From positions 2,193 through 66,192 of the forward strand of contig JACQKW010000014.1 of assembly GCA_016204385.1 (NCBI GenBank): 64,000 nucleotides of DNA. The letters run 5' to 3'. Position numbers and translations under genes: made by a program. Each line of letters begins with the position of its first letter. The first letter of the stretch is position 1. The notes beneath the pieces are model-generated. The model had not been told where the DNA came from. It saw only the letters and a program-made list of their open reading frames with translations, and did no database searches. Positions 3,238 through 62,488 of this stretch are shown in pieces. This stretch comes from Candidatus Liptonbacteria bacterium. Lineage in GTDB: Bacteria > Patescibacteriota > Minisyncoccia > UBA6257 > 2-01-FULL-56-20.

Positions 3238-3250
3238 AGGATTTATCTCG

Positions 3251-3544
3251 TTATGATTGTAGTTTTTCCTTAATGCGGCGGGCTTCGTCCTCGATGACCT
3301 CGCCGTCATAGTCGCCGCTGTGGGCGGTCTCCCGGCCATAGGATGGCCTCTTTTGGTCAAGATGGAGACTGAAAAGAAACATGTCCCCCGTTTCTTTGAG
3401 GTAGAGGTGGAACCGCGGGTAATCGGCGCCCAAGGGGCGCACGCAGTTCATTTCTCCGTCGGGCGTGTAGCCCAAGGGCCTATACCCGAGCTCACGGGCG
3501 ACGTTTGCGATATTTAAGCTTCTTACCGGAAGTTCGAATTTCAT
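3251..3544 (-). CDS. Hypothetical protein (97 aa)
   Basis: ATG-initiated ORF packed between paralog P2 and the next small gene. Product MKFELPVRSLNIANVARELGYRPLGY...PRFHLYLKETGDMFLFSLHLDQKRPSY...; I do not recognise a family. Confidence 0.6.
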   Translation of the reverse strand: MKFELPVRSLNIANVARELGYRPLGYTPDGEMNCVRPLGADYPRFHLYLKETGDMFLFSLHLDQKRPSYGRETAHSGDYDGEVIEDEARRIKEKLQS

Positions 3545-24138: not shown

Positions 24139-24149
24139 TGTGCCGTCTG

Positions 24150-24647
24150 TCAGCGCGTCACGGATACCGTCTGCCCGGCCTCCGCGAACGGGGCCGAGAC
24201 GGTGATCTCGCCGCTCGATGCGTTCTTCACCACCTGATACCCGGTGTCATAATCGGAGATGCTTGCATAATGCGCGCCGGAGGCCGACGGGTCGAAGGGA
24301 AGGTTCTGCAGGTAGGACGGTACAAGACAGGGCGCGATATTGTAGTTCCCGGCTCCCACCGCCATTTTTTTGGACGACGTCGGTATATCGCCGCTTGCGC
24401 ACGTAAATATCGCCGTCCTCGTATCGGCAACATTCTGGCGAATCGCGATCACGATCGCATTCACGTGCGAGCGGCGCTCGGAATTCCTTGCCCGGGAAAA
24501 AAGCCCTGCGGGATTCCCCACAATAAAGAACGTTCCGGCAATAATCACTGCGATGCCGACCGCAATCGAGAGCTCGATCAGCGTAAGCCCATTCTTGCCT
24601 CCGCAGAACCCATGTGTATCCGTCCTCGTCCGCATGTGAGTATTCAT
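24150..24647 (-). CDS. Type IV pilin-like protein (prepilin N-terminal domain)
   Basis: KNGLTLIELSIAVGIAVIIAG is a class III signal (G/LTLIE) followed by a hydrophobic helix. The ATG at 24647 overlaps the upstream stop by 1 nt. The ORF-track extension to 24851 is rejected. Confidence 0.75.
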   Translation of the reverse strand: MNTHMRTRTDTHGFCGGKNGLTLIELSIAVGIAVIIAGTFFIVGNPAGLFSRARNSERRSHVNAIVIAIRQNVADTRTAIFTCASGDIPTSSKKMAVGAGNYNIAPCLVPSYLQNLPFDPSASGAHYASISDYDTGYQVVKNASSGEITVSAPFAEAGQTVSVTR

Positions 24648-26080
24648 TATTGTACCTCCTCCCACGAGAGAAGCGTATATTGCTCGCTCGTGAGCGGAAA
24701 GCTCGGCGGCGGGCTGTAGAGAAGGTTGCCGTCGTAGACAAGATTCCTCGTGAGGTAGCCGGTGCCGTCCGTATAGGCAAACCCGTAGCGGATATTCGAC
24801 GCGATCATTCCGAAGGAGGTGATTATTGTTTTCGTGTGATGTGGAGAACACCGCGGAATGGAGGTCGGCGGGCGATAATAGTACCTTCCCACGCGTCCGT
24901 TCTGCGCGACAAGCGCCGCGTCAATGCGCAGATCGGCCTCGCTCGTCATCCCGATATTTATATTGTTCTGCGCAACCAAACTAATCACGTCGCTCCCGTC
25001 ATAGTTGGTGTAGAGTATATCGTTCGTAACGGAAATGCTCGTGCGCGTCGAAGGGTTGTCGGGAAATGTGCCGGAACCGATCGTGAGGCGCGCCGTACTT
25101 ACCTGTCCCCTCACCCACGCGTGATCCTCTAAAAAGATGATGCCGCTCGCGGGGATGGGGTTATTGCCGAGGAGCGCCCTGTTCTGCACGCTCCATGTCC
25201 CCCAGCCAGATTGGCCAAGCAGGTTATTGCACCCGAAGGGCGGCGGCACAAGCCCGGTCACGCGGTACAGGTCAAACGTATCGTCCGTCTTCAACACCAC
25301 CTCATACCCAAGCGCAGTTGATGACGGCCGGTAAAATCCGCTCATGATGGCGTCGGCCTTCATCTGCGAAAGGTCCTGTTTTAACCCGTCAAAGTCAACC
25401 GCGGGCACGGGGAAATTTCTTCCCACGGCGAACACATCCGGCCGGTTCGGAGCGGACGCGGGAGGAGAAGGATCTGCGGGCGCCACGCACGTATGCACCC
25501 CGAGCGAATTCACCGTGCACGCGTCACCATCCGTATCGTTATACGATGCGAGCGCGCTTGTCACGAGGTTGTGCGCAAAACCGTCGAAGCGAATGCCTCC
25601 GTTCGAGTGCACCTCGCCGAACACCTCGGTCCCTCCTCCAAACCGGTTGTTGGCATTCACGACAATCGAATATTTCGCGAACGACGGTATGCCCATCCTG
25701 ACTTTGATCGCTTTCGCGACCGAACTGTCGGCAATGACCCTGCCGGTGCTCTTTACGGTGACGATCGTGGATCCCAGCGGCGGGGCGGTGATCTCGAGCG
25801 TAAACGTTCCAATGTTCACCCCGAGCCGGTCAAAGTAATTGTGCACGTAGGGGCCGGGGCCGCCCGTGCCGTCTTGGTAATCCGCGGGTGCGTGCGCAAG
25901 ATGCCAGCGATAGTATTCGATGCCCGCCTCCGCAATCGTAAACGCCGAGGCCTTGTTCAAGCTCCGCACGGAAAGCTTCAGGAACGACACCGCAAGGAAT
26001 ACGAATCCGCTTAACACCACAACCGCAACGGCCGCGAAGATGATGACTTGGAGCGATATTTGTCCCCTCGTGCGGTTCAT
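24647..26080 (-). CDS. Large pilus-associated protein with PilX-like N-terminal helix (477 aa)
   Basis: MNRTRGQISLQVIIFAAVAVVVLSGFVFLAV... followed by a long Gly/Thr/Asn-rich beta region. Operon context. Confidence 0.65.
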   Translation of the reverse strand: MNRTRGQISLQVIIFAAVAVVVLSGFVFLAVSFLKLSVRSLNKASAFTIAEAGIEYYRWHLAHAPADYQDGTGGPGPYVHNYFDRLGVNIGTFTLEITAPPLGSTIVTVKSTGRVIADSSVAKAIKVRMGIPSFAKYSIVVNANNRFGGGTEVFGEVHSNGGIRFDGFAHNLVTSALASYNDTDGDACTVNSLGVHTCVAPADPSPPASAPNRPDVFAVGRNFPVPAVDFDGLKQDLSQMKADAIMSGFYRPSSTALGYEVVLKTDDTFDLYRVTGLVPPPFGCNNLLGQSGWGTWSVQNRALLGNNPIPASGIIFLEDHAWVRGQVSTARLTIGSGTFPDNPSTRTSISVTNDILYTNYDGSDVISLVAQNNINIGMTSEADLRIDAALVAQNGRVGRYYYRPPTSIPRCSPHHTKTIITSFGMIASNIRYGFAYTDGTGYLTRNLVYDGNLLYSPPPSFPLTSEQYTLLSWEEVQ

Positions 26081-28455: not shown

Positions 28456-29526
28456 CTAATTGCTGATGCTCTGCGTCAAGGAATAAATCGGCGTGATGAT
28501 GGAGAGCGCCACAAACCCCACCACGATGCCCATGACGAGAAGGAAGAACGGCTCCATGAAACTGGTGAGGTTCTTGATCGAGTTATCAACCTCATCAACG
28601 TAATATTCCGAAATGTAAAAAAGGTTTTCCTCAAGACTCCCCGTGTTCTCCCCCACCTCGATCATTGCGGTCAAGATCGGCGGAAATATCTTCTTTTCTT
28701 TGCGGAGGTATTCGCCGAGCGGTTCTCCCTTCCGCACGTGCTCCGCGGCCGCCACGAGCGCCTGCTGGTATACCGCGTTGTCGAAGGTGTGGCTTGCAAT
28801 AATCACTGCCTCGACGATTTTAACGCCGCTCTTGAGAAGCACGCCCAATACGCGGGTGAAATTCGCCACATTCACGTCAACCGAGAGGCGCCCCACGGCG
28901 GGAAGCGCGAGGAACACGCGGTCAGTGTACCACTTGAACGACTTCACTCGCAGAAGAAGGCGGTATGCAATAATGAGCGCGACGAAGCCCGCAAGCACCC
29001 ATGCCCCGTAGGCGCGCAGGAAACTCAATAGGCTTATGAGCATCTGCGTGGTCACCGGCAATTCCACGTTCAAACTCGAGAAGATCGGCATCACTTTGGG
29101 AAATACGAAGAACGTGAGGAACGAAGTAATCACCATGGTCATCACGAGAAGGATGATCGGATAGATCATTGCCGACCGCACCTTGCCGTGGAGCGCTTTC
29201 CGCTTTCGCAATTCTTCGGCGAGATACAGAAGATTTTCGGCGAGCGTGCCGCTCGCCTCGCCCACCTGCACGATGCTTAAAAAGAACTCGCCGAACGATT
29301 TTCGATATGGCTTCAAGCCGTCCGCGAGCGATTGCCCGTTGCTGATGGTCGTCACGAGATGGTCGAGCAGCGGGATGAGCTTCTTTGAGCTTATCTGCTT
29401 GCGGAGAATCTTAATGGCGTCAAACAGCGGGATGCCCGCTTTGATCATAATGGAGAGATGCCGCGCAAAATTGATCCGCTCCTGAAGCGATAATCGCACA
29501 TGCGTTGGGCGGCGCGAAAGTGTCAT
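28456..29526 (-). CDS. pilC: Type II secretion / type IV pilus platform protein (GspF/PilC family)
   Basis: Duplicated GspF-type halves (LSIMIKAGIPLFDAIKIL... and LGVLLKSGVKIVEAVIIA...) with three TM segments. Confidence 0.85.
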   Translation of the reverse strand: MTLSRRPTHVRLSLQERINFARHLSIMIKAGIPLFDAIKILRKQISSKKLIPLLDHLVTTISNGQSLADGLKPYRKSFGEFFLSIVQVGEASGTLAENLLYLAEELRKRKALHGKVRSAMIYPIILLVMTMVITSFLTFFVFPKVMPIFSSLNVELPVTTQMLISLLSFLRAYGAWVLAGFVALIIAYRLLLRVKSFKWYTDRVFLALPAVGRLSVDVNVANFTRVLGVLLKSGVKIVEAVIIASHTFDNAVYQQALVAAAEHVRKGEPLGEYLRKEKKIFPPILTAMIEVGENTGSLEENLFYISEYYVDEVDNSIKNLTSFMEPFFLLVMGIVVGFVALSIITPIYSLTQSISN

Positions 29527-29593
29527 GGTAATTTCTCCATCGCTCGGAGGCAGGGTTCGGCGGAGAAAGCCCCCGTGCCCCCTCGGACTTCCC

Positions 29594-30829
29594 TCACTCC
29601 CGAATAATCCGCAAGATCTCCTCGATGCTCGTGATGCCCTGGAGCGCCTTTTGAAAACCGTCCTGGATCATGGTGCGCATCCCGGATTTCACCGCCGCCG
29701 CCTTGATCTCGGACGCATCCGCTCGTTTGAGGATAAGGGTTCGGATGTCGTCATTCACCTCGAGCACTTCTCGAACGCCGACTCTTCCGCGATATCCCGT
29801 TCCGTTGCACAAATTGCATCCTTTGCCCTTAAACAGGCCCTGATGATCAAGTTTCACTTCCGGAAGAAGCTCGCTTAAACTTTTCTTTTCCGCCTCTGTC
29901 ACCACACGCTTTCCTTTGCACTCGGTGCAGATGGTCCGCACAAGGCGCTGGCCCATCACGAGGTTCACGGTGGATGCCACGAGGAACGGCGGCACGTCCA
30001 TATCAATGAGGCGCGGGAATGTCGTTGCCGCGTCGTTCGTGTGGAGCGTCGAGAGCACCAGGTGCCCGGTCAAGGCGGCGTTTACCGCGATGTTCGCGGT
30101 CTCCTCGTCGCGGATCTCGCCGACCATGACGATATTCGGGTCCTGCCGAAGGATTGAACGAAGGCCGCTTGCAAACGTAAGCCCCACGCGGCTGTTCACC
30201 TGTATCTGGTTCGTCCCTTCGAGCGAGTATTCGATCGGGTCCTCGATCGTGATGATGGAAACCTCGGGCCGATTGAGTTCTTTGAGTATCGTGTAGAGGG
30301 TCGTCGTCTTCCCCGAACCCGTGGGGCCGTTCGCAAGAATCATGCCGTACGGCTTCTTGATCGCGCGATACACGATGTCGTACTCCTTTTCCTGGAATCC
30401 GAGGTCTTTGAGCGCAAATGTCCTTGTTTCCGCAAGAATCCGCATCACCGCGTTCTCTCCATAGTGCGTGGGCGCGATCGAAACGCGCACGTCCGCGTTG
30501 CCGATGCCCTCGATTTCCGCCTTGAACCGCCCGTCCTGCGGCTCATTGTGCTCGTCGGTGCGGAGCCCCGAGAGCACCTTGATGCGGCTGATGATCTCCG
30601 GCTGGAGGCCCATCGAAATGCCGATGTGGTCGAAAATGTCCTGCAGTATCCCGTCGATCCGGAATCGGATGCGAAGCCGGTGCTCGCCGGGCTGAATATG
30701 AATGTCAGACGCTTGCGAAATGTATGAGTACGCGATAAAGAGATCCACCAGCTTGATGATGGAAATCTCCTCGATTGGCTTGATTAGCTGCTTCTCGATC
30801 TCAACCTTGAGCGCCTGCGCGTCTTTCAT
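29594..30829 (-). CDS. pilB: Type IV pilus assembly ATPase (GspE/PilB family)
   Basis: Walker [13 protein letters not shown], Asp box, Walker [10 protein letters not shown], His box [10 protein letters not shown], and tetracysteine CTECKG...[12 protein letters not shown]. Confidence 0.9.
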
Positions 30830-35938: not shown

Positions 35939-36009
35939 TGCCGGGTCGTCTAACGGTAGGACGTTTGGCTCTGAACCAAAAAATTGGGGTTCGATTCCCT
36001 GCCCGGCAG
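35939..36009 (+). tRNA. tRNA-Gln (anticodon CUG)
   Basis: Hand-folded cloverleaf: acceptor TGCCGGG/CCCGGCA (U1-A72), D arm GTCT-AACGGTA-GGAC, anticodon arm TTTGG-CTCTGAA-CCAAA, T arm TGGGG-TTCGATT-CCCTG. No encoded CCA. Confidence 0.85.
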
Positions 36010-38893: not shown

Positions 38894-40363
38894 ATGAACC
38901 AGATCTATGCGTACCGGGAACCGCCGCCGAAACTAAGCGCCTCGACGATGCAGTCGTTCGTGAACTGCGAAATGCAGTGCGCGTATGAGCGCCTCTTGGT
39001 AGACCCTCCCTCGATCCTCGAGCCCCTGCCGCGCGTCTTCGGCAACGTCATCCACTCCCTCCACGAACTCCTGTGGAAGAATCCGGCGGAGCGTGCGGAC
39101 GGCGTCGTTCGCCGAGGCATGGGAATTCTCTCCGGGGTTTTGAAAGGAGCGCACGGCCTGAAGGGCGAGAAATCGCCCCCCGTGCTCATCCGCTTTCTCA
39201 CACGGCGGCAGATCACAGGCCTTACGGAAAGCGAAGTCGAGGAGCGAACCAAAGAAGAGAAAGAAAAATATATGGCGAAAGGCCGCCTTATGCTCCAAGC
39301 CCTTCGGCTCGAGCGAATCGCGCCCGTCCCCAACCTTGACCTCGTTGAAGTCGAGCGAGACTTAGGGAAAGACGGCATTGAGATCCAGGAGCACCACGCG
39401 TGGAGAGCATACAGGTTGAGCGGCCGGATGGACCGCATCTTCCACTACGCGGACGGCAGTTACGAAATTTTCGACGTGAAAACCGGGAAAGTGGACGAGC
39501 GGTACGCGCGCCTTGTGCTGCTTCACAACATCCAGATGACGCTTTACCACAGAGCCGGCTTCAGTCTTTTCGGAAGGGATCCGATCCGGATGTGGCTCAT
39601 CGCATTGAGGGACGTGAGCAAGAGTACGCTCGCGCGTGCGCAGGAAGAACTTTCCTCCGGCCGCTCGCCAGACGCCTTGAGGGAAATGTACGTTGAGGTT
39701 CCGCTTCGAAAACCCGTTGACTTCACGGACCTCGCACAGCTCGCGGCGGACATCGACACCGTAATGCGCATGGTTATCTTCCCGCACAGGTACCGGCCGT
39801 GGCAGATCGAGGCGTGGGAACCTCTTTCGGCGATAGGGAAGAAAGCCGACTTCAAGGACAACGTCCGGGAGGGACGTTTCATGCCGCGGATCGGCGCATG
39901 GTGTGAAACGTGCACCTTCCTTGAAGCATGCCGCGAAGACAACGCCAGTGACTGGGAGAAGCACTACCGCACCCGCGCGGTGCCCGCGGGCAATGAGACG
40001 CCTCCTCCCGCAGCGCCACACGTGCCGCCGGACGAGCCTCAAGTTGCGCTCTTTGAAACCTTCGCTCGCCCAAAATCGCTTCGGAAGAGCGACCGCGAGC
40101 ATAAGCGGAAACTGCGCGAGCTGGGGTTCCTTCCCCGAAAATCGCTCCTTGCGCTCTATAAGAGAGCCCCGCAGCTCATCCCCGCGTTTCGGAACATCCC
40201 TTGCGCGTGCAGGGAGCTTGACGTGTTCCACCCGGAGATGATCGCCCGTCTCCTCATAAGCTTCCTCAAAGGAACACCGCCCATTCTAGAGGTAGTGAGG
40301 CAACACTGTCCCTACGAGGAATGCCCCTTCCGCGAAACCCGCGCGGAGGCAGTACAGCAGTGA
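38894..40363 (+). CDS. PD-(D/E)XK nuclease, Cas4/RecB-like with Fe-S Cys ligands and a long C-terminal extension
   Basis: GRMDRIFHYADGSYEIFDVKTGK (D...D-x-K core), an N-terminal Cys pair NCEMQC, and a C-x2-C-x5-C cluster CETCTFLEAC. About 145 extra C-terminal residues carry further Cys pairs (PCAC, CPYEEC). Confidence 0.75.
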   Translation: MNQIYAYREPPPKLSASTMQSFVNCEMQCAYERLLVDPPSILEPLPRVFGNVIHSLHELLWKNPAERADGVVRRGMGILSGVLKGAHGLKGEKSPPVLIRFLTRRQITGLTESEVEERTKEEKEKYMAKGRLMLQALRLERIAPVPNLDLVEVERDLGKDGIEIQEHHAWRAYRLSGRMDRIFHYADGSYEIFDVKTGKVDERYARLVLLHNIQMTLYHRAGFSLFGRDPIRMWLIALRDVSKSTLARAQEELSSGRSPDALREMYVEVPLRKPVDFTDLAQLAADIDTVMRMVIFPHRYRPWQIEAWEPLSAIGKKADFKDNVREGRFMPRIGAWCETCTFLEACREDNASDWEKHYRTRAVPAGNETPPPAAPHVPPDEPQVALFETFARPKSLRKSDREHKRKLRELGFLPRKSLLALYKRAPQLIPAFRNIPCACRELDVFHPEMIARLLISFLKGTPPILEVVRQHCPYEECPFRETRAEAVQQ

Positions 40364-43297: not shown

Positions 43298-44416
43298 TTA
43301 TCTTCGCGCCCGCCGCATCTCACCCAATTTTTCCACCCGGACGCCGATAAGGCGGATTTTCTTTTTTTTTAGATTTTCACGTTTGTCCAAAAACGGCATA
43401 ACAAGCCGCATTGCCTCAAATTGGAGCGCACCAAGGTCCGAGACCGGGTCTCGAAACGTATGTGCCCGCGTTTTGGTCTCAAAGTCCGCGAAACGGACGG
43501 TAATCGAGACGCCGCGAAAACTTTTCCATTCGCTCGTCGTAAGGTGCGCAATCACGCTCTCGCACATCGCGGCAAGGCGCTCCTGGATAAAATTCGAATC
43601 TTTCGTGTCTTCCCGAAACGTCTCCTGTTCGCCGATTGATTTCCGTTCGTATTCCTGGACGATCGGCGACTCGTCAACGCCCCGTGCTTTCCGGTAGAGC
43701 GAGAGTCCCCACTTGCCGAGCATCTCCCCGAGTTCTGTCTGTGAGAATCGCGTGAGATCACGGATTGTGCTCACTCCTTTTTCCGAGAACATCGCCTCGG
43801 TTTTCGGACCGATGCCGGGGATTTTCCGGATCGGGAGCGGTTCAAGAAATGCCTCGACAAGCTCGGCGCAAGTTTTTTCGTCGTCATGGCCAACAATCGT
43901 GAGCCCGTCCGGCTTTTTGAAATCGGATGCAATTTTGGCGACGAGTTTATTGGGGCCCATGCCGATAGAGGCAGTGAGTTTTTCCTTCTCTCTGATCTCC
44001 TGCTTTATGCTCTCGCAGATCGCGCGCGCCCCTTCATATGAGTCCGAGAAACTCAAATCCATATATGCTTCATCCACCGACGCTGCTTCCACACGCGCCA
44101 CGCACGTTCGAATGATGGCCATAATGCGCTCCGAAACTTCGCCGTAGCGCGCGAAATTTCCTCCGAGAAAGACGGCGGGCGGTCTCCCTTTTTGCCGGGC
44201 TGCCTCGGAACGCCGCCAGGCGGTCGAGATCGGCATTGCCGAGTGGATTCCGTACTCCCGCGCTTTGTAATTCGCGGTCGAAACCACCCCCCTACCCTTG
44301 CCTTCTTCAGGATCAGCTCCCACGACAATCGGAAGTCCCTTGAGCCGTGGTTTATCCCGCTCCTCAATCGCCGCGAAAAAGGCATCCATATCGAGATGCG
44401 CAATAATCCTTTTCAT
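43298..44416 (-). CDS. dinB: DNA polymerase IV (Y-family)
   Basis: MKRIIAHLDMDAFFAAIEERDKPRLKGLPIVVG...SVDEAYMDL...GIGPKT. Confidence 0.9.
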   Translation of the reverse strand: MKRIIAHLDMDAFFAAIEERDKPRLKGLPIVVGADPEEGKGRGVVSTANYKAREYGIHSAMPISTAWRRSEAARQKGRPPAVFLGGNFARYGEVSERIMAIIRTCVARVEAASVDEAYMDLSFSDSYEGARAICESIKQEIREKEKLTASIGMGPNKLVAKIASDFKKPDGLTIVGHDDEKTCAELVEAFLEPLPIRKIPGIGPKTEAMFSEKGVSTIRDLTRFSQTELGEMLGKWGLSLYRKARGVDESPIVQEYERKSIGEQETFREDTKDSNFIQERLAAMCESVIAHLTTSEWKSFRGVSITVRFADFETKTRAHTFRDPVSDLGALQFEAMRLVMPFLDKRENLKKKKIRLIGVRVEKLGEMRRARR

Positions 44417-44610
44417 AAAATCACTTGGATATGGATGCTCGAAAGGGGGTCGGGGAAACGCGTGAGGGGTTCCCCGTGTTGGAAAACCTGCGAAGCAGGA
44501 GTTAGAAACTCCGCCTTCGCCCGGCGGCTACGGACGGGCAGGCGAGGGTTTCTAAGGAGTCCCGTAAAGCGGGACGACGCATCCATATCCAAATGGCCAA
44601 TGATCCTCAT
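44413..44610 (-). promoter_or_regulatory. Structured dinB leader carrying a duplicated dinB 5' end (65-codon upstream ORF coupled by ATGA)
   Basis: The upstream ORF starts MRIIGHLDMDA, compared with dinB MKRIIAHLDMDA. Its stop overlaps the dinB ATG. A 14-bp perfect helix, 44425..44438 with 44579..44592, encloses at least five hairpins. Confidence 0.5.
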
Positions 44611-44665: not shown

Positions 44666-44694
44666 TTGACATTTCTAAATTGTTTTGTTAAGAT
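44666..44694 (+). promoter_or_regulatory. Sigma-70-type promoter
   Basis: TTGACA, 17 nt, TAAGAT. Upstream of the 88-aa plus-strand ORF, which has the SD gaaaggaagg. Confidence 0.6.
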
Positions 44695-44777: not shown

Positions 44778-45044
44778 ATGGACGACGGCGTACTCGTTTT
44801 CAAGTTCAAGCGGCCGCTTCAGCTCGCGGCGGGCGGGATTACTCCCGGAGGAGCGATCTTTCCCATCGAGGTGATCCGGTACATCGATCTCGTGAAGAAT
44901 ACGCTGCACGTCGCGCTTCCCCATAAGCTCGAGTTTCGTGAGACCACCGTGCTCATTTTCTACGATGGCCTCGCGATCCTCGTCGAGAGGGACACCCTGG
45001 GGGAAGTTCAGTTCACAAGACACGAGAGCACCGCCGCGGCATAA
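44778..45044 (+). CDS. Hypothetical protein (88 aa)
   Basis: The promoter, SD and a terminator whose loop contains the stop codon all support the plus-strand ORF over the overlapping 149-aa minus-strand ORF. Confidence 0.55.
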   Translation: MDDGVLVFKFKRPLQLAAGGITPGGAIFPIEVIRYIDLVKNTLHVALPHKLEFRETTVLIFYDGLAILVERDTLGEVQFTRHESTAAA

Positions 45045-52096: not shown

Positions 52097-52954
52097 TCAC
52101 CGTTCTGTAAACACCTGAATTTTTTCTCCTCTTCGTACGAGCTTCACCGTGCCGTCCCGATCGGTACGGAACAGGTGCGGCGTGAACGCCGAAATCCGCC
52201 CGCGCGCCTCTTCGGTCGGGTGGCCGTATCGGTTTTGCCCCACCTCGATCACGGTTATCTTCGGCCCCACTTCTTTAAGAAATCGGTCGCTTGAAGAATA
52301 CTTCGAACCATGGTGAGGGATTTTCAGAATATCGGCCTGCAGATTGTTCCGGTCTGCGAGATATTCCTCCACGTTCGAGCCAATGTCGCCGGTAAAGAGC
52401 CCGCGGAACCGCGGCGAATTGACCATCATGACCAGGCTTGTATCGTTCAATTCGCCGCTTCCGATCCATTCTCCGTCCGGGGAAAGAACCGAGACCGAGT
52501 GGTCGCGATATGAGAGCGAATCGCCTGCGCCGAGCACGACATGCGGCGTGCGTCCCGCCTGTAGCTTCTCCGTAAGCATGAACCACTCGGGCTGCTCCAC
52601 GCTCCTCCCGTTCGTCGCAAAAACACCGAAACGGTATCTGCCAAGGAGAGTGTTGAACCCGTTAAAATGGTCGAGCTGGGGATGCGTGATTACCGCCACG
52701 TCTATATACCGATCGGCGGATCCCAAAATGCGCTCGAGACTCCGCAACACTTTTCCATCGGGCCCCGCGTCTATAAGAATCTTTACGTTTCCCGGCAGCA
52801 CGATAAGCTCGCTGTCGCCTTGTCCGACATCCAAAAAATAAAGCTCGGGGCGGTCGCGTGAGCCCCCAAGAAACACCTGCGACCAAAGAAAAACATCGAG
52901 CGCGATGCATGCGGCAAGGATAAGCACATGAATGTTTTTATCGCGTGTGCTCAT
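52097..52954 (-). CDS. MBL-fold metallo-hydrolase (ComEC C-terminal beta-lactamase-like module as a separate gene)
   Basis: HPQLDHFNG metal motif, DVGQGDS, HHGS, and an N-terminal TM. ATGA overlap with the upstream ComEC gene. Confidence 0.8.
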   Translation of the reverse strand: MSTRDKNIHVLILAACIALDVFLWSQVFLGGSRDRPELYFLDVGQGDSELIVLPGNVKILIDAGPDGKVLRSLERILGSADRYIDVAVITHPQLDHFNGFNTLLGRYRFGVFATNGRSVEQPEWFMLTEKLQAGRTPHVVLGAGDSLSYRDHSVSVLSPDGEWIGSGELNDTSLVMMVNSPRFRGLFTGDIGSNVEEYLADRNNLQADILKIPHHGSKYSSSDRFLKEVGPKITVIEVGQNRYGHPTEEARGRISAFTPHLFRTDRDGTVKLVRRGEKIQVFTER

Positions 52955-54423
52955 GGTCTCGGAGCCGTGCGGCGGTTAAAATTCATCGTAAACCACAAGA
53001 CCGCGCCGTAATACAGGGCAACAAGCGGCACTGACGCGAAGCGTATCGAAAACCGCACGGCCGAAAAAAATCCTATCACGCCTATCTGAAAATGAAGGAG
53101 AAGGCTCACCATCCATGCAAGCATTGCGCCTATCGGCGCGAGGAGAGCGTTCATGCCCGCGAGCACGAAACCGAAGAACATAGTGAGCGGCACAGTGCCG
53201 AGAATGAGCACGTTTGCCGCAAGCGAGGTAAGCGAAAAATCGCCGAACGACAGGATAAGGAGCGGCGCCACGGCAAGTTGCGCGGCGGCGGTGGTTCGTA
53301 AATTCTCGCGCCACGAAAGGATGCCTTTTAGAGGAGGAGTGCGGCGCCGCGTGATCCGCAGAATGCAATTCTCGATCGCGGGCCCTATATACACGATGCC
53401 AAGCAGACTCAAAAACGAGAGCGCGAAGCCCAGATCAAACCGCACGACGGCGGGATCGAAGAGCGCCATCCCGGCCGCGGTGAGCGTGACCGGATTTCGA
53501 AAACTATGAATTTTCCCGATGTCTTTCGCAAGAAGAACCAGGAACCCCATAATCGCCGCGCGCACGACCGATGCCTCGGCTCCCACCATGAGCACGAAAA
53601 GGACGATGACTGCGGTCGTGAGCACAAAGGTGATTCTTCGGGAAAGGAAATATCCAAAGACGCCAGAGACCGCGAGCACGAGTATCCCGATGTTATACCC
53701 CGAAAGCGCCACAAGGTGGGTGGTGCCGCTTCGGGACATTTGCTCCTTTAATTCCCGCGTGAAGTCGGATCGCGCGCCCAAGGTAAGCCCCGAGAGAAGC
53801 GCGGCGGAATCCGCGGGGAGCGTCTGCTTGAACTGCGCCACCATTTTTTGTTTTAGGGCAAAAAGCGTTTCTTTTATCCAGAATCCCCGATGCGCCTCGA
53901 CAAATTCCATTTTCGGAAACACCGAAACCGGAGACGATACCCTGTCCTCCGGCGCATTGATCTTGCCGTCAAATGAAATGAGGTCGCCGTAACGGCGCTC
54001 GGGGGCCACACCCGTGACCACGTCAATGCGCCCCGCAAAGGGGGGTTCAAGCGCCACCACGAACCGCTGTGACCTTTCGGTGAACTTCGGCTCGCGCGCC
54101 ACCACTCCCGAAAACTGAATGCGTTCGTCGTACGGCACATTCATATGCGCATCGCGGACATTCAAGAACAGATGGAAATAGAAGATACCGAAACACAGCG
54201 AGAGAAACGCCGCCGCGTAATAGCGCGGAGGAATCCGGATAGATAGCCACAGTGCCCCGCCCAATGCGCCGAGCGTGCCGAGTACAACGCGCGCATCCCA
54301 CGCCGTGGACGCCGCAAGGACGCCGAAAAGAAACGCAATCGCTCCGACGAAGAGAAGATTCGCGGGAACTTCAAAAAAGTCCGCGCGTTCACCTACGCCC
54401 GGCGGGAGTTCTGTTTTCTCCAT
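52951..54423 (-). CDS. comEC: ComEC/Rec2 competence channel protein (DUF4131 plus competence domain only)
   Basis: Polytopic. OB-like N-terminal part (FSGVVAREPKFTERSQRFVV), then the competence-domain helices (SGTTHLVALSGYNIGIL...). Confidence 0.85.
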   Translation of the reverse strand: MEKTELPPGVGERADFFEVPANLLFVGAIAFLFGVLAASTAWDARVVLGTLGALGGALWLSIRIPPRYYAAAFLSLCFGIFYFHLFLNVRDAHMNVPYDERIQFSGVVAREPKFTERSQRFVVALEPPFAGRIDVVTGVAPERRYGDLISFDGKINAPEDRVSSPVSVFPKMEFVEAHRGFWIKETLFALKQKMVAQFKQTLPADSAALLSGLTLGARSDFTRELKEQMSRSGTTHLVALSGYNIGILVLAVSGVFGYFLSRRITFVLTTAVIVLFVLMVGAEASVVRAAIMGFLVLLAKDIGKIHSFRNPVTLTAAGMALFDPAVVRFDLGFALSFLSLLGIVYIGPAIENCILRITRRRTPPLKGILSWRENLRTTAAAQLAVAPLLILSFGDFSLTSLAANVLILGTVPLTMFFGFVLAGMNALLAPIGAMLAWMVSLLLHFQIGVIGFFSAVRFSIRFASVPLVALYYGAVLWFTMNFNRRTAPRP

Positions 54424-56128: not shown

Positions 56129-57994
56129 TCAAACCGAACGCCCTTCTTGTTCATCCTGTGCGATTTCCGGAGGACGTGCGGCGTTTGAACCTTGAAGCGC
56201 TGATTTCACCGCTTCGCGGAGTTTTTCTATATCCACTTCCGCGTGCTTCCTGTGCTTCACCGCGGGCATCTCCGAGGGCTTGAGTTCCTTGAGCGACAGG
56301 TGCTCTCTCGCCTCGTCCCGGGGCGCGGGAACCTCCTCAAAGACAGGTTTTTTGGGCGGCCGGAGCTCCACTTTTTCCTCTCTCGGCTTTTCGAACTCAA
56401 TGCCGAAATCGCCAAGGTCGGACATGAATCGTTCTTCAGCGCGCGGGCGTTCAACCTTCTCAACCTTGACCCGCGGCATCTCCCCCGCTTTCACTTTTGC
56501 GAGGCACTCGCGGCAGTAGATCGGCCGCCCTGCCGTGGGAATGAAATTCAACTCGGTGTGCTTCCCGCACGAGGAACACACTGCCGGATACCTGATCTTC
56601 GTGTCACTCACGGCTCCCGCGCGCTCCCGCCGCTCGCGGGACGGAGGAGAGGAAACCCCCATGGTCTCCCCCATCATATCGCCCATCATGCCGCTCCAAC
56701 GATTAATTTCTTCTTCCACCGCCTCGCGCGGCTTTCCGTAGAGCGCGCGCGACGACTCAATAATCTCGTTTACGTGCATTGACGATCCGGGAATCTTGAA
56801 TGGCGGAAGCGTGTTTGCCGAAAAAGGCCTGCTCGTGATGCCGTCAACCATAAGCTTCAGATACACGCAATAATTTGGGAGATTCACCAGATCCTGCATG
56901 TTGAATTCCGGCTCGAATTCCTTCTCAAAGAATTCCGCGTCTCCGGCGCCCACGCGGAACGTAACCATGGTTCCCACGTTCCCGAATACCGCGTCGCGCA
57001 CCACGGTCGATACATCGGTGATGAGCTGACCCACATACTGGTGGGCGAGAATCAGATTCAGGCGATACTTCCGCGCTTCGGAAAGAATGCCCGCAAAGGA
57101 ATCCGTGGCAAAATTTTGGAACTCGTCCACATAGAGGTAAAAATCTTCCCGCTCATCTTCCGGAATACGGACGCGCTCCATCGCCGAGAGCTGAATCTTC
57201 GTAATGAGCATCGCGCCCAACAGCGCGGAGTTGTCCTCGCCGATCCTTCCTTTCGAGACATTCACGAGGAAGATCTTCTTCGTGTTCATAATGTCGAAGA
57301 TGTCAATCGTGCTCTTTGACTGCCCCACCACGTTCCTGATGAGACTCGTCGAAAGAAACTGGCCCACTTTGTTCTGAATGGGGGCAATGGCTTCGTTCCG
57401 GAACTGGTCGCGCCACTGCTCGTACTCGTTCACCCAAAATGCTTTGACCACGGGATCTCTTACGTTATTGATTATTTTTTGCCGATAGTCCTTGTCAACC
57501 AGAATCCTCGTGATGCCCAAAAGGGTCGTTCCCGGCGTCTCAAGAAGCGCAAGGATCGCATTGTTCATAATGTACTCCATCCTCGCGGACCACACATTCG
57601 CCCAGATTTTCGTAAAAATCGCCATAAGCCCCGAGGCCACAAGGTGCTTATACTTCGGATCGGGAAGCTCAAGCACGTTGAAGCCGAGATGATAGTCGGT
57701 ATCCGCAGGGTTAAAATACACCACGTCTTTCACGCGCTGCTCGGGAATCTTTGAGATGATGCTTTCCACTAATTCGCCGTGCGGATCCACCACGCACACC
57801 CCTTCGCCGTTTATAATATCTTGCACTACCATGTTATGGAGGAGCGCGGTTTTCCCCGTGCCCGTCTTGCCCACCACGTACATGTGCTGCCTGCGGTCGC
57901 GGCGCTTCACGCCAAAGAGCCGATTCGTATTCCGAAAATCAGTTCTGCCGAAATAGACGACCTCCGCGGCCGCGGGAAGAGCCGATCGCATCAT
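56129..57994 (-). CDS. TraG/VirD4/TraD-like P-loop ATPase with C-terminal zinc-ribbon tail (paralog 2)
   Basis: Walker A VVGKTGTGKTAL, YVDEFQNF, and EARKYRLNLILAHQ. The C-terminal tail contains CSSCGKHTELNFIPTAGRPIYCRECL. No N-terminal TM. The ATG at 57994 is preferred over the TTG at 58012. Confidence 0.8.
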   Translation of the reverse strand: MMRSALPAAAEVVYFGRTDFRNTNRLFGVKRRDRRQHMYVVGKTGTGKTALLHNMVVQDIINGEGVCVVDPHGELVESIISKIPEQRVKDVVYFNPADTDYHLGFNVLELPDPKYKHLVASGLMAIFTKIWANVWSARMEYIMNNAILALLETPGTTLLGITRILVDKDYRQKIINNVRDPVVKAFWVNEYEQWRDQFRNEAIAPIQNKVGQFLSTSLIRNVVGQSKSTIDIFDIMNTKKIFLVNVSKGRIGEDNSALLGAMLITKIQLSAMERVRIPEDEREDFYLYVDEFQNFATDSFAGILSEARKYRLNLILAHQYVGQLITDVSTVVRDAVFGNVGTMVTFRVGAGDAEFFEKEFEPEFNMQDLVNLPNYCVYLKLMVDGITSRPFSANTLPPFKIPGSSMHVNEIIESSRALYGKPREAVEEEINRWSGMMGDMMGETMGVSSPPSRERRERAGAVSDTKIRYPAVCSSCGKHTELNFIPTAGRPIYCRECLAKVKAGEMPRVKVEKVERPRAEERFMSDLGDFGIEFEKPREEKVELRPPKKPVFEEVPAPRDEAREHLSLKELKPSEMPAVKHRKHAEVDIEKLREAVKSALQGSNAARPPEIAQDEQEGRSV

Positions 57995-58069
57995 ACGTAT
58001 AGTATATCCCAAAAAACGCCGTGAAAAAAGAGGCGGTGATGCGCACTGGACGCACGCCCCGCATGAACT

Positions 58070-58716: not shown

Positions 58717-60549
58717 TTAGACGATCTCTGACTGATAGCATTGCTCGCAGTAGACGATTTCAGGGCGCTCGGGGGCGTAGCTTGTTTCGAATTCGTTCGG
58801 GCACGGTTGCTCGCCGTGGAAGTGGGTTGCAGAGTTTTTATACGCAGGTTCCCCTTTGCCGCGTGCGCCGTGCGAGCCGAGACACGTGCACCGCCTGTGC
58901 CACAACCGATAGCGCCGCTTCCCCTCCACACGCTCGTAATGCCGGCACTCGGGACACAACCGCGGGAGGGGCACGCGGAGCCGCCGGTAAAATTCGAGTT
59001 CCTTGGGTACGATTTTAAATACACCTTTGCATTGGTGGAGACAGTGCGCGCGGTGGCCGCACGTGATCACCGTTTCAAAGATATCGCCCTCTGTATCCTT
59101 GATGTGGTCGGGAAGCTCTTCGGGCGAGAGGGCCTGCTCGTAATTTTTCTCTTCCACATCCCGCCATCGAAACTTTTTCTCAAGCGCGGCGTCTTTCGTG
59201 AGCGGAAAGTACTCATGCGCCATGGAATCGTTGTAGGCAATCGTGGAAAACTCCGGAGGGAAATATTCCCCGTAGCGATACACGATTTGCCATTTGCCAT
59301 TTGCTCTTTGCGATACATACGGCATCTCGTTCATGTGCGCCATGATTTTCGGAACGAGTTTCTCATACTCCTCTTTGGTATATTGCTTGTTTAAAATACA
59401 GTATTCCTTGTTCCGAAGCCCCGCACATCCAAAAAGATGCGCGCACCCGAACGCAGTCATGGAATAGCGGACGTCGAACGAATCGGTTGCTCCCGTTGAG
59501 AAAAACACCCGCTCCGAGCCGATCGCGTTCGCCTCATAGAGAAGCTCGGCGCGCGCGCCTCCGCTAAAGACATCGTAGGAATCCTTAAGCCTTCGGCCGC
59601 CTATAAGCGCGTATTTTACGTTTTCGCCGCCGTCCCGGATTTCAAAGCTAAACTTGCAGTTCTTCGCATGTTCAATGTTGTCTCCCGTACAATCAACCGC
59701 GTTTTTCGAGATCATGTAGCGGCGCGGAAACCGGGCGATAAGCTCAGCGTGCCTCGCGTGAACCATCTGAAGCGTCCGATAGCTTCCAAGATCCATTTTT
59801 GCCATCTCTGCCTCATAATCCTTTTTCGAATAAGGTTTATTAAAAATATGGTACTGCTTGTTCCGGAGGCCCACGCAGCCGAAACAATTCGATACATTGT
59901 GGCAATCGTAGAGGAAGGAGGAGTCCATGCATTCAACGCAATACGCGCTAAAGCGAAGATTAAAGCACCGTGTGCAGGAGAAACACTCATAGAGCACTTC
60001 GCAAAAGATACAGATGGAAGTGTCCACCGCGTCGCGGCAGAGCGCGGGGGTGTTCGAATACATGCAATCCTGCGAGAAATATGCGCCCGAGACAAGATAG
60101 CAATTTTTTGAATTGATTGCCGACGTGCAGTAATCGCAATTCACCGAGTTCGTGATATTCATGTTCGGGCGTGGAACCGCGCCCTTGAGCTCAAAGAACT
60201 GTTCAAAAAACGGCTGCGAGAAATCATACTCTCTGCCATACCGCAGAGGATCCCATTTGTCCGACCACCAATACGCTTGATCATAGACCACATCGCCGCC
60301 ACCGGGCGGATAGCGACTGATAAGTTCCTCGTTGTGGCCCGGCGCCTCACACTTCCGCTTAAAGAGAGCGCGCTCGTTGGATCCCACCATTTTCCTCATC
60401 ATCCTGCACTCCGGGCAGAACGTCGGCGGCGGGACGGAGATTTTCTCGTAGAACTGGAAATCTTGAGCGTCTATTACAAATTGCCCCTTACAGTTCTGGC
60501 AGGTCGCAGACACTGAGCGTAGCGAATGTGTTTTTGTTTCCTGATTCAT
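58717..60549 (-). CDS. Multi-zinc-ribbon Cys-repeat protein, paralog P4
   Basis: 610 aa. MNQETKTHSLRSVSATCQNCKGQFVIDAQDFQFYEKISVPPPTFCPECR...PEIVYCEQCYQSEIV. Confidence 0.9.
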   Translation of the reverse strand: MNQETKTHSLRSVSATCQNCKGQFVIDAQDFQFYEKISVPPPTFCPECRMMRKMVGSNERALFKRKCEAPGHNEELISRYPPGGGDVVYDQAYWWSDKWDPLRYGREYDFSQPFFEQFFELKGAVPRPNMNITNSVNCDYCTSAINSKNCYLVSGAYFSQDCMYSNTPALCRDAVDTSICIFCEVLYECFSCTRCFNLRFSAYCVECMDSSFLYDCHNVSNCFGCVGLRNKQYHIFNKPYSKKDYEAEMAKMDLGSYRTLQMVHARHAELIARFPRRYMISKNAVDCTGDNIEHAKNCKFSFEIRDGGENVKYALIGGRRLKDSYDVFSGGARAELLYEANAIGSERVFFSTGATDSFDVRYSMTAFGCAHLFGCAGLRNKEYCILNKQYTKEEYEKLVPKIMAHMNEMPYVSQRANGKWQIVYRYGEYFPPEFSTIAYNDSMAHEYFPLTKDAALEKKFRWRDVEEKNYEQALSPEELPDHIKDTEGDIFETVITCGHRAHCLHQCKGVFKIVPKELEFYRRLRVPLPRLCPECRHYERVEGKRRYRLWHRRCTCLGSHGARGKGEPAYKNSATHFHGEQPCPNEFETSYAPERPEIVYCEQCYQSEIV

Positions 60550-60555
60550 TGATTT

Positions 60556-60647
60556 TTATCCCGCCGATGGCGGGATCCTCGATTTTGTAAATTCGCTTCG
60601 CTCATACAAAATCGGACAATTTTGGCAGATTTTGGTTTGCGCTTCGG
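60556..60647 (-). pseudogene. Fossil 5' end of a Cys-repeat paralog in the P5-P4 spacer
   Basis: Directly after the P5 stop the minus strand reads EAQTKICQNCPILYERSEFTKSRIPPSAG*. Compare the family N-terminus ETKxCQNCKxxFxIxxxDFxFYEKIxVPPPT. The segment between CQNC and FYEK is deleted. Confidence 0.5.
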
Positions 60648-62441
60648 TCATATCACTTCTGCCTGATAGCACGGCTCGCAGTAGACGATTTCAGGGCGCT
60701 CGGGCTGGTAGCTGGTTTCAAAAGCATTCGGACAGTGCTCTCCGTTTTTATGAGAGGTGTGAGGAAGACCGAGATTTGCGTATTGATGATTGGTGCGCGG
60801 TTGTTCGTCGCTTGTCTCGCCCGCACACATGCATTTCCTCGCATACCACTTCATCGGATTTCTAAATTGCATCCGCTCCCGATGACGGCAACCGTCGCAG
60901 AGACGTGGCAGGGGCAGTCTAAAACGTTTATAAAACTCGAATTCCGGCTTCACGATCCGATAGGCGCGCGCGCAGGAAAGGCATTCGATAATTTCTTTCG
61001 TGACGTCCTGTGCGACGTCATTAATATGATCGGGAAGGTCGCTTGAACGGATAGTAGTATCAAATTTCTTTTTGTCCTCTTCCCACCAGTTGAAACCGCC
61101 TTGCGCTGCCGCCTCTTTACTTTTCGGAAAATAATCGCTGGCTGCCGACTCGTTGTATCCCAAGGGCGAAAACTCTGGCGGGAAGAATTCGCCGTATCGG
61201 TACTTCCTCTCGTTCTGATCCTTAAAAGGCATGGCGTGCATGTGTTCGATAATTCTTTTCCTAAGTTCTTTGAACTCCTGCGGAGAATATTCCTTGTTCA
61301 AAATGCAATACTGCTTTTTCTTGAGACCCACGCACCCAAAAAGATTAGATGAGGAATGACACAGCATGCAATATTCCAGATTTTCGCAATCGGGCCAACA
61401 GTCAGTACAGAATTTAAGATCATAACAGTTTTCTCCGCAGACGACTGCTTCATATATGAGCTCTGAATCGCCGCCCCAGCTCGTAAAATCAGACGAATCC
61501 CTGGCATCAACCATGTCCTGGGAGTATCTTATGTTTTCCATATTCAGTCCCTGATAGGAGCGGAAGACGTTCTTTGCGTGATAAATATACTCCCCCACCA
61601 CGTTTGTATTGTGGGTGCCGTGCGCGTACCGCATCGGAAACCGCGACCAAAATTCATGCGCTTTTCTCTTCGACTCCTCGAGCGCCCGATATGACCCGAG
61701 GTTAAACTCTTTTATCTTTTTCATGTACTCCTCTTTTGCATGCGGCTCATTGAAAATGTGATACTGTTTGTGCCGCAAATTCACGCATCCGAAACAGTCG
61801 CTGCAGTTATCGCAGTTAAGGCAAAACCACACGTTCCGGCAGTCGCCGCTCTCTACGGTAAAAAAAACTTGCCAGCAACGGCCGGCAGAAAAAACCTCAT
61901 AGCACAGCTCGCAGTTGTTTGTCATGTAGAAATCCATCGAATTTCTCATACTCAAAAATTTTATGCCGTAGAGGCAGTTTTCTGATTTATCGCCATGGGA
62001 TCCTCCATTAAAACAGAGGTAGCAGTCTTTGAGATCGGCAACCTGGTTGCAATAATCACTGCGGACAAGGTTCTTGATGGATCGCGAGGGCCACGGCACG
62101 GCGTACATCAACTCGCGAAATTGCTCAAAAAATGGTTTTGAGAAGTCATACTCCCGGCCGTAGGCCATGGGGTCCCAGTTGTCAGACCACCAGTAATCAT
62201 GATCGTAGATCTTGACCGGTGACGCCTTCGAAAAAGTAGAAAAGACTTCTTTTCCTGCAAGCGCCTCTGGCTTCCGAAAGAGAGTACGTTCAGACCAAAA
62301 CGCATACCGCCGCACGGCACGGCACTCCGGGCAGAACGTCGGCGGCGGGACGGAGATTTTTTCGTAAAATAAGAAATCTTCGGGTTCGATGGTGAACTGG
62401 GTTTTACAGTTTTGGCAGGTTTTAGTTTCTGACTGATTCAT
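60648..62441 (-). CDS. Multi-zinc-ribbon Cys-repeat protein, paralog P5
   Basis: 597 aa. MNQSETKTCQNCKTQFTIEPEDFLFYEKISVPPPTFCPECR...PEIVYCEPCYQAEVI. Confidence 0.9.
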   Translation of the reverse strand: MNQSETKTCQNCKTQFTIEPEDFLFYEKISVPPPTFCPECRAVRRYAFWSERTLFRKPEALAGKEVFSTFSKASPVKIYDHDYWWSDNWDPMAYGREYDFSKPFFEQFRELMYAVPWPSRSIKNLVRSDYCNQVADLKDCYLCFNGGSHGDKSENCLYGIKFLSMRNSMDFYMTNNCELCYEVFSAGRCWQVFFTVESGDCRNVWFCLNCDNCSDCFGCVNLRHKQYHIFNEPHAKEEYMKKIKEFNLGSYRALEESKRKAHEFWSRFPMRYAHGTHNTNVVGEYIYHAKNVFRSYQGLNMENIRYSQDMVDARDSSDFTSWGGDSELIYEAVVCGENCYDLKFCTDCWPDCENLEYCMLCHSSSNLFGCVGLKKKQYCILNKEYSPQEFKELRKRIIEHMHAMPFKDQNERKYRYGEFFPPEFSPLGYNESAASDYFPKSKEAAAQGGFNWWEEDKKKFDTTIRSSDLPDHINDVAQDVTKEIIECLSCARAYRIVKPEFEFYKRFRLPLPRLCDGCRHRERMQFRNPMKWYARKCMCAGETSDEQPRTNHQYANLGLPHTSHKNGEHCPNAFETSYQPERPEIVYCEPCYQAEVI

Positions 62442-62488
62442 GGCACAGGAAACATCATCCCTACATTCTCAAGTATGTTAGGATGTTT

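Follow-up and report, generated by a model that had tools for sequence, protein, structure and literature searches.

Why should the first codons of a DNA polymerase gene occur twice on one strand, with a reverse-complementary copy of them in between? The question is raised by dinB in a 64,000-nucleotide stretch of Candidatus Liptonbacteria bacterium (Patescibacteriota; contig JACQKW010000014.1 of assembly GCA_016204385.1, positions 2,193 to 66,192), which we call the window; coordinates below use the numbering of the whole window, and dinB and all element features lie on its minus strand. A sequence-only reading had offered two answers, a translational switch or the scar of an inserted element carrying a replacement 5′ end. 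The second appears essentially right as far as the element and its replacement end are concerned, the insert being not a scar, however, but a complete copy of a family with many targets. We consider it likely, with a probability of roughly 0.8, that the 197-nt unit at this locus (44382-44578) belongs to a family of site-specific insertion elements of Patescibacteria, the candidate phyla radiation (CPR), that are miniature and encode no protein. The family is apparently large, widespread in CPR bacteria and undescribed.

The locus is composed of the following parts:

43298-44416, minus strand: dinB, encoding DNA polymerase IV; 372 aa, intact, with Pfam IMS (2.9e-41), IMS_C and HHH
44579-44610, minus strand: copy 1 of the dinB 5′ end; ATG and 10 codons (MRIIGHLDMDA), with the left junction after GATATGGATGC
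44413-44610, minus strand: upstream open reading frame (uORF) of 65 codons; copy 1 and a read-through of the entire element
44559-44578, minus strand: 5′ end of the element; GUC and hairpin H1 (GUCCCG-CUUUA-CGGGAC)
44442-44555, minus strand: conserved scaffold, matched by the family model R1; hairpins H2 and H3, a UUUUCC linker, hairpin H5 and GACCCCCUUU
44422-44438, minus strand: antisense ("guide-like") copy of the target, GCAUCCAUAUCCAA(GUG), beginning 7 nt past GACCCC
44417-44421, minus strand: A/U-rich remainder of the spacer before the dinB ATG, with no Shine-Dalgarno sequence
44382-44416, minus strand: copy 2 of the dinB 5′ end; ATG AAA and 10 codons (MKRIIAHLDMDA), continuous with dinB, with the right junction after 44382

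Most of what had been read from the letters of this locus holds. The dinB product is 100% identical to "DNA polymerase IV [Candidatus Liptonbacteria bacterium]", a protein from a metagenome-assembled genome (MAG). The diverged second copy of its first 11 codons is present upstream (MRIIGHLDMDA against MKRIIAHLDMDA), and the 65-codon frame that it opens ends with a TGA that overlaps the dinB start as ATGA (44413-44416). The two copies form a direct repeat of 29 nt at 83% identity, spaced 197 nt apart (44382-44410 in copy 2), and enclose a stretch of 162 nt without dinB sequence (44417-44578). Joining copy 1 to the codons past copy 2 gives the intact frame that had been proposed, MRIIGHLDMDA-FFAA, and the insertion point falls after HLDMDA, directly before the FF of the polymerase IV catalytic motif. 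Across the 64 kb, the shared 11-mer GATATGGATGC has exactly three occurrences, at 44579-44589 (−), at 44382-44392 (−) and inverted at 44428-44438, against 0.04 expected by chance.

The antisense segment could pair with copy 1 (14–17 bp) or with copy 2 (11 bp). With copy 1 it forms an inverted repeat of 17 nt at 94% identity (44422-44438 with 44579-44595) that includes the 14 perfect nucleotides noted earlier, and with copy 2 a perfect one of 11 nt; the full spacer from this segment to the dinB ATG is 11 nt (AGUGAUUUU..) and begins inside the antisense part. The predicted RNA fold has the copy 1/antisense helix closing four hairpins, one of them long and with an extension, rather than the five or more first counted (−94 kcal/mol, z = −3.3, equalled by 0 of 200 shuffles). 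When copy 1 is masked, the antisense segment is predicted to pair with copy 2 and the dinB AUG to lie in the loop (−72.9 kcal/mol), which reproduces the trapped start codon of the sequence-only reading. This three-way pairing arises because the family architecture puts one antisense copy of the target between two sense copies. Within the scaffold, the arms of H2 are UUAGAAACC...GUUUCUAA with a 34-nt loop extension, the small hairpin H3 is GCUUCGC, and the arms of H5 are CACGGGGAAC...GUUUCCCCG. The element holds no open reading frame (ORF) other than the read-through uORF, and neither BLAST of the element nor R1 with filters off found a second copy in the window.

The evidence for a family comes from metagenome contigs, which were scanned with a pattern taken from the 3′ part of the element and containing no dinB bases (CACGGGRAN{8,38}CCCGACCCCN{25,35}TATGAA). 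The pattern retrieved 40 loci. A covariance model, R1, built from 27 of these with the window excluded, confirmed 35 of the 40 (E 7e-16 to 1.5e-7), rejected five as chance matches (L082, L090, L099, L106 and L107) and added extra copies in L094, L086 and L091. Against the window, R1 gave a single match, at 44442-44555 (−), with 43.1 bits and E=2.3e-8. Since a pattern with an arbitrary 6-mer requirement still yielded 35 validated copies, the true number is probably far larger. Scans of IMG/VR with two patterns gave nothing or one chance match at 10 bits, plasmid and phage collections gave no match, and a full-text search of the literature found no description of such elements.

Three loci carry more than one scaffold. 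Two family members lie 280 nt apart behind different tRNA-Leu genes (tag and taa) in L094 (6050-6610), a weaker second copy stands in tandem 185 nt from the first in L086 (1511-1606 and 1696-1782), and L091 has a second, weaker copy near the first (457-540 and 1664-1771).

The aligned copies share one anatomy. Read on the element strand, copy 1 is followed by a variable 5′ module, H2, an optional small hairpin, a UUCCnC linker and H5; after H5 come ACCCCUUUCC (the scaffold end, GACCCCUUUCC), the antisense segment, a spacer of 0–19 nt and copy 2. Copy 1 is a partial copy of the target end, and copy 2 is continuous with the intact gene. H2 has the form xxRAACCC-ACGG-UUYxx with a covarying outer stem, and H5 the form CACGGGRAAAC-loop-GUUUYCCCG. 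The 5′ module varies between subfamilies and is missing from the shortest copies; four loci (L089, L100, L103 and L104) carry an extra one (GGACUAGCUC...UUCGGUUCCGGCUCACUCC) upstream of H2. The shorter copies look like 5′-truncated versions and the 5′ modules resemble a truncation series. At nearly every resolved locus, the antisense segment is a 10–24-nt reverse complement of the local target, placed 5–8 nt past GACCCC, and it ends at the junction or at most 11 nt beyond. Direct repeats measure 11–79 nt and the unit about 145–260 nt. In the tRNA cases, the stretch from the antisense segment to the tRNA 3′ end forms a terminator-like hairpin.

Covariation, proposed earlier as a check, was analyzed on the family alignment (MAFFT), and the scaffold does covary: 97.6% of cells are paired compared with 88.7% in column shuffles, double-change cells number 48 compared with 14, and the signal collapses with slid partners. 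The G-U pairs lie on the element strand, and therefore it is that strand which folds, as RNA or single-stranded DNA. The window copy has the H2 hairpin, the UUCC linker, the H5 hairpin and GACCCCUUUC, together with the reverse complement of its local target and the duplicated target end.

Each insertion is only a few dozen bases away from an end of a conserved gene. Genes downstream in the sense orientation encode GT4 glycosyltransferases (six distinct loci), RNase H (two loci), a MurD-like ligase, two EF-Tu-type GTPases and, in L096, dinB. Other copies are convergent with a tRNA gene and abut its 3′ part (tRNA-Leu twice, -Arg, -Asn, -Ser and -Tyr), or lie antisense at the 3′ end of the GAPDH gene (L104, inside the NEFGYS motif) and of alaS (L115). 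The targets are catalytic or invariant motifs, namely DMDA|FF, AHxD|xGK, GNPG, WGGA, GLGxxG and the tRNA T-loop. Conserved sites of this kind are also where homing introns and inteins insert.

To look for further copies at dinB, 80 dinB loci were fetched from one-genome-per-species contigs. Only one of the 80, L023, has a second DMDA-encoding start upstream; its DinB is 51% identical, and its uORF of 85 codons (MIQRIIAHLDMDA...) ends 4 nt before dinB. The antisense copy there is gacatccatatcaag, and the interior is homologous to the window element, with TTAGAAACCC, GTTTCTAAC, GCTTCGC, GTTTTCC..CACGGG and CCCGACCCC as common blocks. A profile of the two uORF peptides had a single match among 5.8 billion proteins, which led to L081; the uORF peptide is not a conserved protein. 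L081 carries a homologous element at the identical dinB site, with its own uORF and the target GACATGGAC, and its antisense copy has the matching synonymous change, GAT to GAC. Copy 1 of L081 stands directly behind GGAG, 5 nt past the upstream gene. The first hairpin of both L023 and L081 occupies the place of H1 in the window and differs from it in sequence. The copy at the same dinB site in L096 (470-660, −) belongs to a different 5′ subfamily (AATTTCACTGCTCGC...). All that is left of its copy 1 is "ATG TAG", and of its antisense segment GCATCC; both have largely decayed, and the whole resembles an old insertion that has since become an ordinary, fixed 5′ leader.

The four element-bearing dinB genes are each closer to element-free relatives than to element-bearing ones. 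R1 has no match among the 79 other dinB loci, and the nearest DinB relatives (70% and 65% identity) have only 67–76 nt upstream of dinB, without an R1 match. Relatives without the 197-nt segment, which the sequence-only reading had thought worth seeking, thus exist at this distance, but no near-identical pair of filled and empty alleles was seen. The patchy distribution implies horizontal gain, frequent precise loss via the direct repeats, or both, and it is at odds with a conserved leader.

Three other similarities at dinB loci were set aside. That of L029 upstream of dinB is a chance match. Long DinB homologues (404–411 aa) were considered as read-through fusions and rejected, their N-terminal or internal extras being unlike translations of the scaffold. 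A Bryobacterales MAG (L072) has dinB-type starts KMSTFFHVDMDAFFVSVE and KMSTYFHVDMDAFFVSVE at 1865 and 3983, 2.1 kb apart, apparently a tandem duplication of whole dinB genes unrelated to the element.

How does a gene with such an insert stay expressed? In 13 of the 14 insertions at 5′ ends of protein genes, the ORF begun by copy 1 reads across the entire element; L083 is the exception. These ORFs stop between −11 and +5 of the new ATG, mostly as ATGA, and all three frames are used across loci. Given the open frames of each element, the probability of at least 13 of 14 being open is 0.015, for loci that are not all independent. Sense strands contain 20 stop triplets in 1591 nt against 39.4 ± 5.2 expected, and stop triplets have a density of 12.6 per kb in sense copies versus 22.7 per kb in copies antisense to their target. 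The new starts have no Shine-Dalgarno sequence and are located in the loop of the predicted antisense/copy-2 hairpin. This holds for the window as well, where the ATGA is preceded by ccaagtgatttt and, as had been remarked from the letters, no GGAGG-like sequence stands before the dinB ATG (ccaagtgattttATG).

Coupling by termination and re-initiation is the simplest reading of these features, and probably keeps dinB expressed. Translation would begin at 44610 on the old dinB signals; ribosomes would cover 11 DinB codons and 54 element codons, melting the structure on the way, terminate at the UGA overlapping the new AUG and re-initiate to produce full-length DinB. When the uORF is not translated, the dinB AUG would be held in the antisense/copy-2 hairpin. 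Native control by promoter and ribosome-binding site would be retained through this handover at the new start, and a local translational role of the uORF in dinB is plausible. No promoter-like site turned up for the uORF/dinB strand. A good sigma-70-like site at 44666-44694 (+), TTGACA-17-TAAGAT with TG, points away from dinB and faces an 88-aa ORF without a Pfam match (44778-45044, +).

As to how the elements move, a scaffold-binding enzyme encoded elsewhere would mobilize them in trans. The antisense segment would either direct insertion by base pairing with the target or be templated from the target during insertion. The observations listed below fit insertion with the segment as guide and an enzyme acting in trans, which might copy, primed by the target, an RNA or single-stranded-DNA intermediate together with adjoining target sequence. 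The element would afterwards home from one gene to its homologues and co-convert their flanks, a spread made possible by the high conservation of the target motifs. It is conceivable, at clearly less than even odds, that this amounts to a new class of prokaryotic element: a protein-less unit of ∼150–250 nt, made of a scaffold and a guide, whose guide is re-templated from each new target and leads an enzyme in trans to a matching site near a gene end, which is duplicated so that the host gene survives. As an alternative mechanism, the inverted and the direct target copies could both be made during insertion.

Several observations bear on the role of the antisense segment. It keeps a constant spacing to a conserved scaffold, as in the layout of scaffold-plus-guide RNAs. 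In many copies it reaches 5–8 nt across the insertion point and therefore matches the intact target, not only the element's own copy. Among older copies (L118, L121 and L098), it agrees with copy 2 and not with copy 1 at all eight positions where these differ, and it changes together with copy 2 between L098 and L117 (C/T). Because it tracks copy 2, the pairing is either maintained or co-inherited. Fresh copies show an identical tract of 27–58 nt abutting the junction, to the left of which the first codons of copy 2 differ but are homologous (L110, L083 and L095); the duplication in L117 includes 9 nt of 5′ untranslated region (UTR).

A number of points weigh against this account. Instead of acting as a guide, the antisense segment may simply have arisen as a by-product when the element inserted. 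Near-identical scaffolds occur with unrelated antisense segments: the two members in L094 have an identical 42-nt 3′ scaffold with different 5′ modules, and a second such pair is the glycosyltransferase copy of L095 and the MurD copy of L110, whose targets differ by one base in ten. Unlike antisense segments on like scaffolds imply either that re-specification is faster than scaffold divergence or that scaffolds are homogenized by gene conversion. In L097, the antisense segment serves as an arm of a palindrome (804-882) that is perfect over arms of 39 nt around a loop of 1 nt; the palindrome comprises the antisense segment, the terminator-like hairpin and the 3′ end of tRNA-Arg and recurs in L102, L105 and L109. 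It points to synthesis by fold-back (template switching) or to strong selection for a long hairpin. A pure fold-back origin of the antisense copy fits L097 and was rejected on L117 and the window, where the antisense segment is far from the would-be loop.

Mobility is inferred from the distribution and was not observed, as no near-identical alleles with and without the element came to light. No mobilizing protein was found inside the elements or recurrently next to them among the ORFs of 38 loci, where all-against-all clustering recovered only syntenic host genes, and Pfam detected no reverse transcriptase or recombinase among the 30 largest ORFs of the window. At the dinB locus itself, the spacer and copy 2 resemble the native 5′ UTR and start of dinB in the nearest relative (L123, aaagtaatATGaaaag). 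Copy 2 thus looks native in the window, whereas in L081 it is copy 1 that stands behind a canonical GGAG, and either copy may be the ancestral one. Regarding the survey, the TATGAA in the search pattern favors copies before an ATGAA start or a terminator containing TATGAA, and several loci are orthologous (the glycosyltransferase and RNase H sets), so that the counts are not independent.

Against the insertion-element reading stand four other explanations. The locus might be the miniaturized attL-attR scar of a larger integrase-type element with a replacement end in its attP, comparable to a cis-mobilizable element (CIME). Gene-end direct repeats do flank the insert in the window with the gene restored, and tRNA 3′ ends (T-arm) are classic integrase targets, but none of ∼38 copies contains or adjoins an integrase or cargo. 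All copies measure 145–260 nt and have a common covarying scaffold whatever the target, which would not be expected of independent deletion scars, and att sites have no equivalent of the antisense target copy that stands at a set distance from the scaffold; we regard such an origin as unlikely. An intron-like element removed from the RNA between the repeats, restoring MRIIGHLDMDA-FFAA with the antisense segment as exon-binding or internal guide, would account for the helix between an internal segment and the final 14 nt of the "5′ exon", as in pairing between exon- and intron-binding sites (EBS-IBS) or in P1, for removal in frame, and for the choice of a catalytic motif, typical of homing introns. 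Yet Rfam shows no group I or II core, whether the gathering or a permissive threshold is applied; the element is also too small, and a second start codon with a stop-free frame ending on it would be needless. As the element is antisense to the tRNA, GAPDH and alaS genes that it interrupts, splicing could not rescue them there, and we find an intron distinctly unlikely. Group II introns are moreover reported absent from Patescibacteria (PMC13011429).

The translational switch of the sequence-only reading would be a dedicated cis-regulatory dinB leader, with the antisense segment toggling between the upstream copy, which would free the dinB start, and the dinB copy, which would trap it. The three-way pairing is real, both predicted folds are stable, the structure is kept in two other dinB loci with H1 and the antisense segment covarying, and the uORF ends on the start codon. 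The same scaffold, with its antisense segment re-matched, nevertheless precedes unrelated genes and stands in antisense orientation behind tRNA genes, GAPDH and alaS; it is missing from the 79 other dinB loci and the nearest relatives, and it has no conserved junction resembling a ligand pocket. The Rfam/Infernal scan advised earlier matched no family to the leader: the only gathering match to Rfam 15 in the window is a tRNA at 35939-36009, and permissive scans (window, L119 and L097 copies) gave only chance matches resembling microRNAs and small RNAs, far below threshold. The multi-target distribution contradicts an origin as a regulatory leader, so a switch as the element's identity is unsupported and very unlikely, although a secondary, exapted role is conceivable. 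A local accident, in which the dinB start was duplicated in tandem or by replication slippage and the hairpins are due to chance, is hardly credible. Template switching can give direct and inverted repeats, but the intervening 140 nt are homologous to ∼37 other loci, a family membership that already refutes it, and three occurrences of the 11-mer far exceed the chance value.

Further identities were tried and rejected. No core of a self-cleaving ribozyme (hairpin N*GUC, hepatitis delta virus-like or hammerhead) fits by eye or in Rfam; many copies begin with GUCG after the junction and other subfamilies do not. A simple homing nuclease of the TnpB/omega-RNA kind was dismissed, the antisense segment also matching the occupied locus (copy 2 and the rest of the gene). 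The differences between the two target copies are not adenine-specific, unlike in diversity-generating retroelements. Retrons have a1/a2 repeats unrelated to their flanks, whereas the closing helix here is target sequence, and no reverse transcriptase is nearby. For a group I intron, with its P3-P9 core, there is no Rfam match, and the antisense segment is 140 nt away from the left junction, whereas the guide would stand beside the 5′ splice site; for a group II intron, neither Intron_gpII nor group-II-D1D4 matches and the read-through uORF is the only ORF. A classical miniature inverted-repeat transposable element (MITE) is excluded by an inverted repeat that differs with each target and equals it, by duplications of 11–79 nt and by the failure to find a parent insertion sequence (IS).

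We therefore return to a site-specific, non-autonomous insertion element, which fails the defining features of each known system that we compared. Mobile group II introns, which retrohome by EBS1/EBS2/delta-IBS pairing, offer one parallel: in the element too, an internal segment is complementary to the target, here to the 10–24 nt directly 5′ of the insertion point and sometimes a few nucleotides beyond, insertion is in the sense orientation into conserved gene sites, and the core is structured and RNA-like. They exceed 600 nt, however, compared with 145–260 nt here, and the element lacks both a domain V/VI core and a reverse transcriptase gene of the intron-encoded kind; it duplicates the target end and supplies a new start, with no sign that splicing is needed. 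IS110/IS1111 elements (bridge RNA/seekRNA) likewise combine a structured non-coding part, a re-programmable target-complementary stretch and high site specificity, but have a DEDD recombinase gene, absent in or beside our element, and leave no long target duplication. Their bipartite target and donor loops may be a further difference, a single contiguous antisense stretch having been recognized here, where no systematic search for a second, donor-specific guide was made.

Integrase-type elements (P4-like islands, e14 in icd and CIMEs) share near-end insertion, a replacement end, direct repeats and tRNA T-arm targets, and differ in that our element lacks integrase and cargo and has one folded scaffold across targets along with an inverted target copy. 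MITEs and Rickettsia palindromic elements (RPEs) are similarly miniature, non-coding, multi-copy and presumably mobilized in trans, and RPEs are also tolerated inside reading frames and translated through; here, by contrast, each target, and not a parent IS, supplies the terminal repeats, the duplications are long and differ in length, and the sites are specific conserved motifs at gene ends. Target-primed reverse transcription of R2 and of short interspersed nuclear elements resembles the family in its site specificity, precise 3′ junctions, variable or truncated 5′ modules, variable duplications and carriage of flanking target sequence. It differs in that the element has no identified reverse transcriptase partner and its antisense target copy has no R2 counterpart; we know of no bacterial non-LTR (long terminal repeat) system. 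The expression side recalls ATGA termination-reinitiation in bacterial operons, with a uORF stop overlapping the dinB start, free of a Shine-Dalgarno sequence, in a structure that ribosomes would open, except that the upstream cistron consists here of a shortened copy of the gene itself joined to a mobile element.

Among the same 30 ORFs of the window, Pfam recognized ordinary CPR genes, those for PGK, PBP2, MreB/C, ScpA/B, DnaX, pilus and type II secretion system (T2SS) proteins, ComEC and VirD4-like ATPases. Genes of DNA-uptake and transfer machinery (7196-9565, 56129-58012, 52951-54423 and 28456-30829, all −) encode two VirD4/TraG-like coupling ATPases, ComEC and a T2SS-F/T2SS-E pair, a set typical of CPR genomes and a possible route for the spread of the element. 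The sole nuclease-like large ORF noticed encodes a 489-aa protein of the PD-(D/E)XK superfamily (38894-40363, +), with no link to the element. Large ORFs (324–628 aa) at 1474-3360, 4313-6001, 23164-26080 and 58717-63976 (all −) have no Pfam match at 1e-5.

For dinB, these results mean that the leader is a tolerated selfish insertion and not a dedicated riboswitch; the main value of the finding is the family that it reveals. A non-coding size like that of MITEs, insertion near gene ends, at catalytic or otherwise conserved motifs, that restores the gene end, and a target-complementary segment fixed in position next to a conserved folded scaffold are not known together. If the antisense segment is a guide, a programmable insertion enzyme is implied, and with it a compact, naturally re-programmable, nucleic-acid-guided system; if it is a footprint, it points to an unusual insertion chemistry that makes both inverted and direct target duplications. 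Copies of this kind can prompt spurious annotations of small ORFs or N-terminal extensions, and the family offers a natural example of a gene kept working by read-through and re-initiation across a structured insert.

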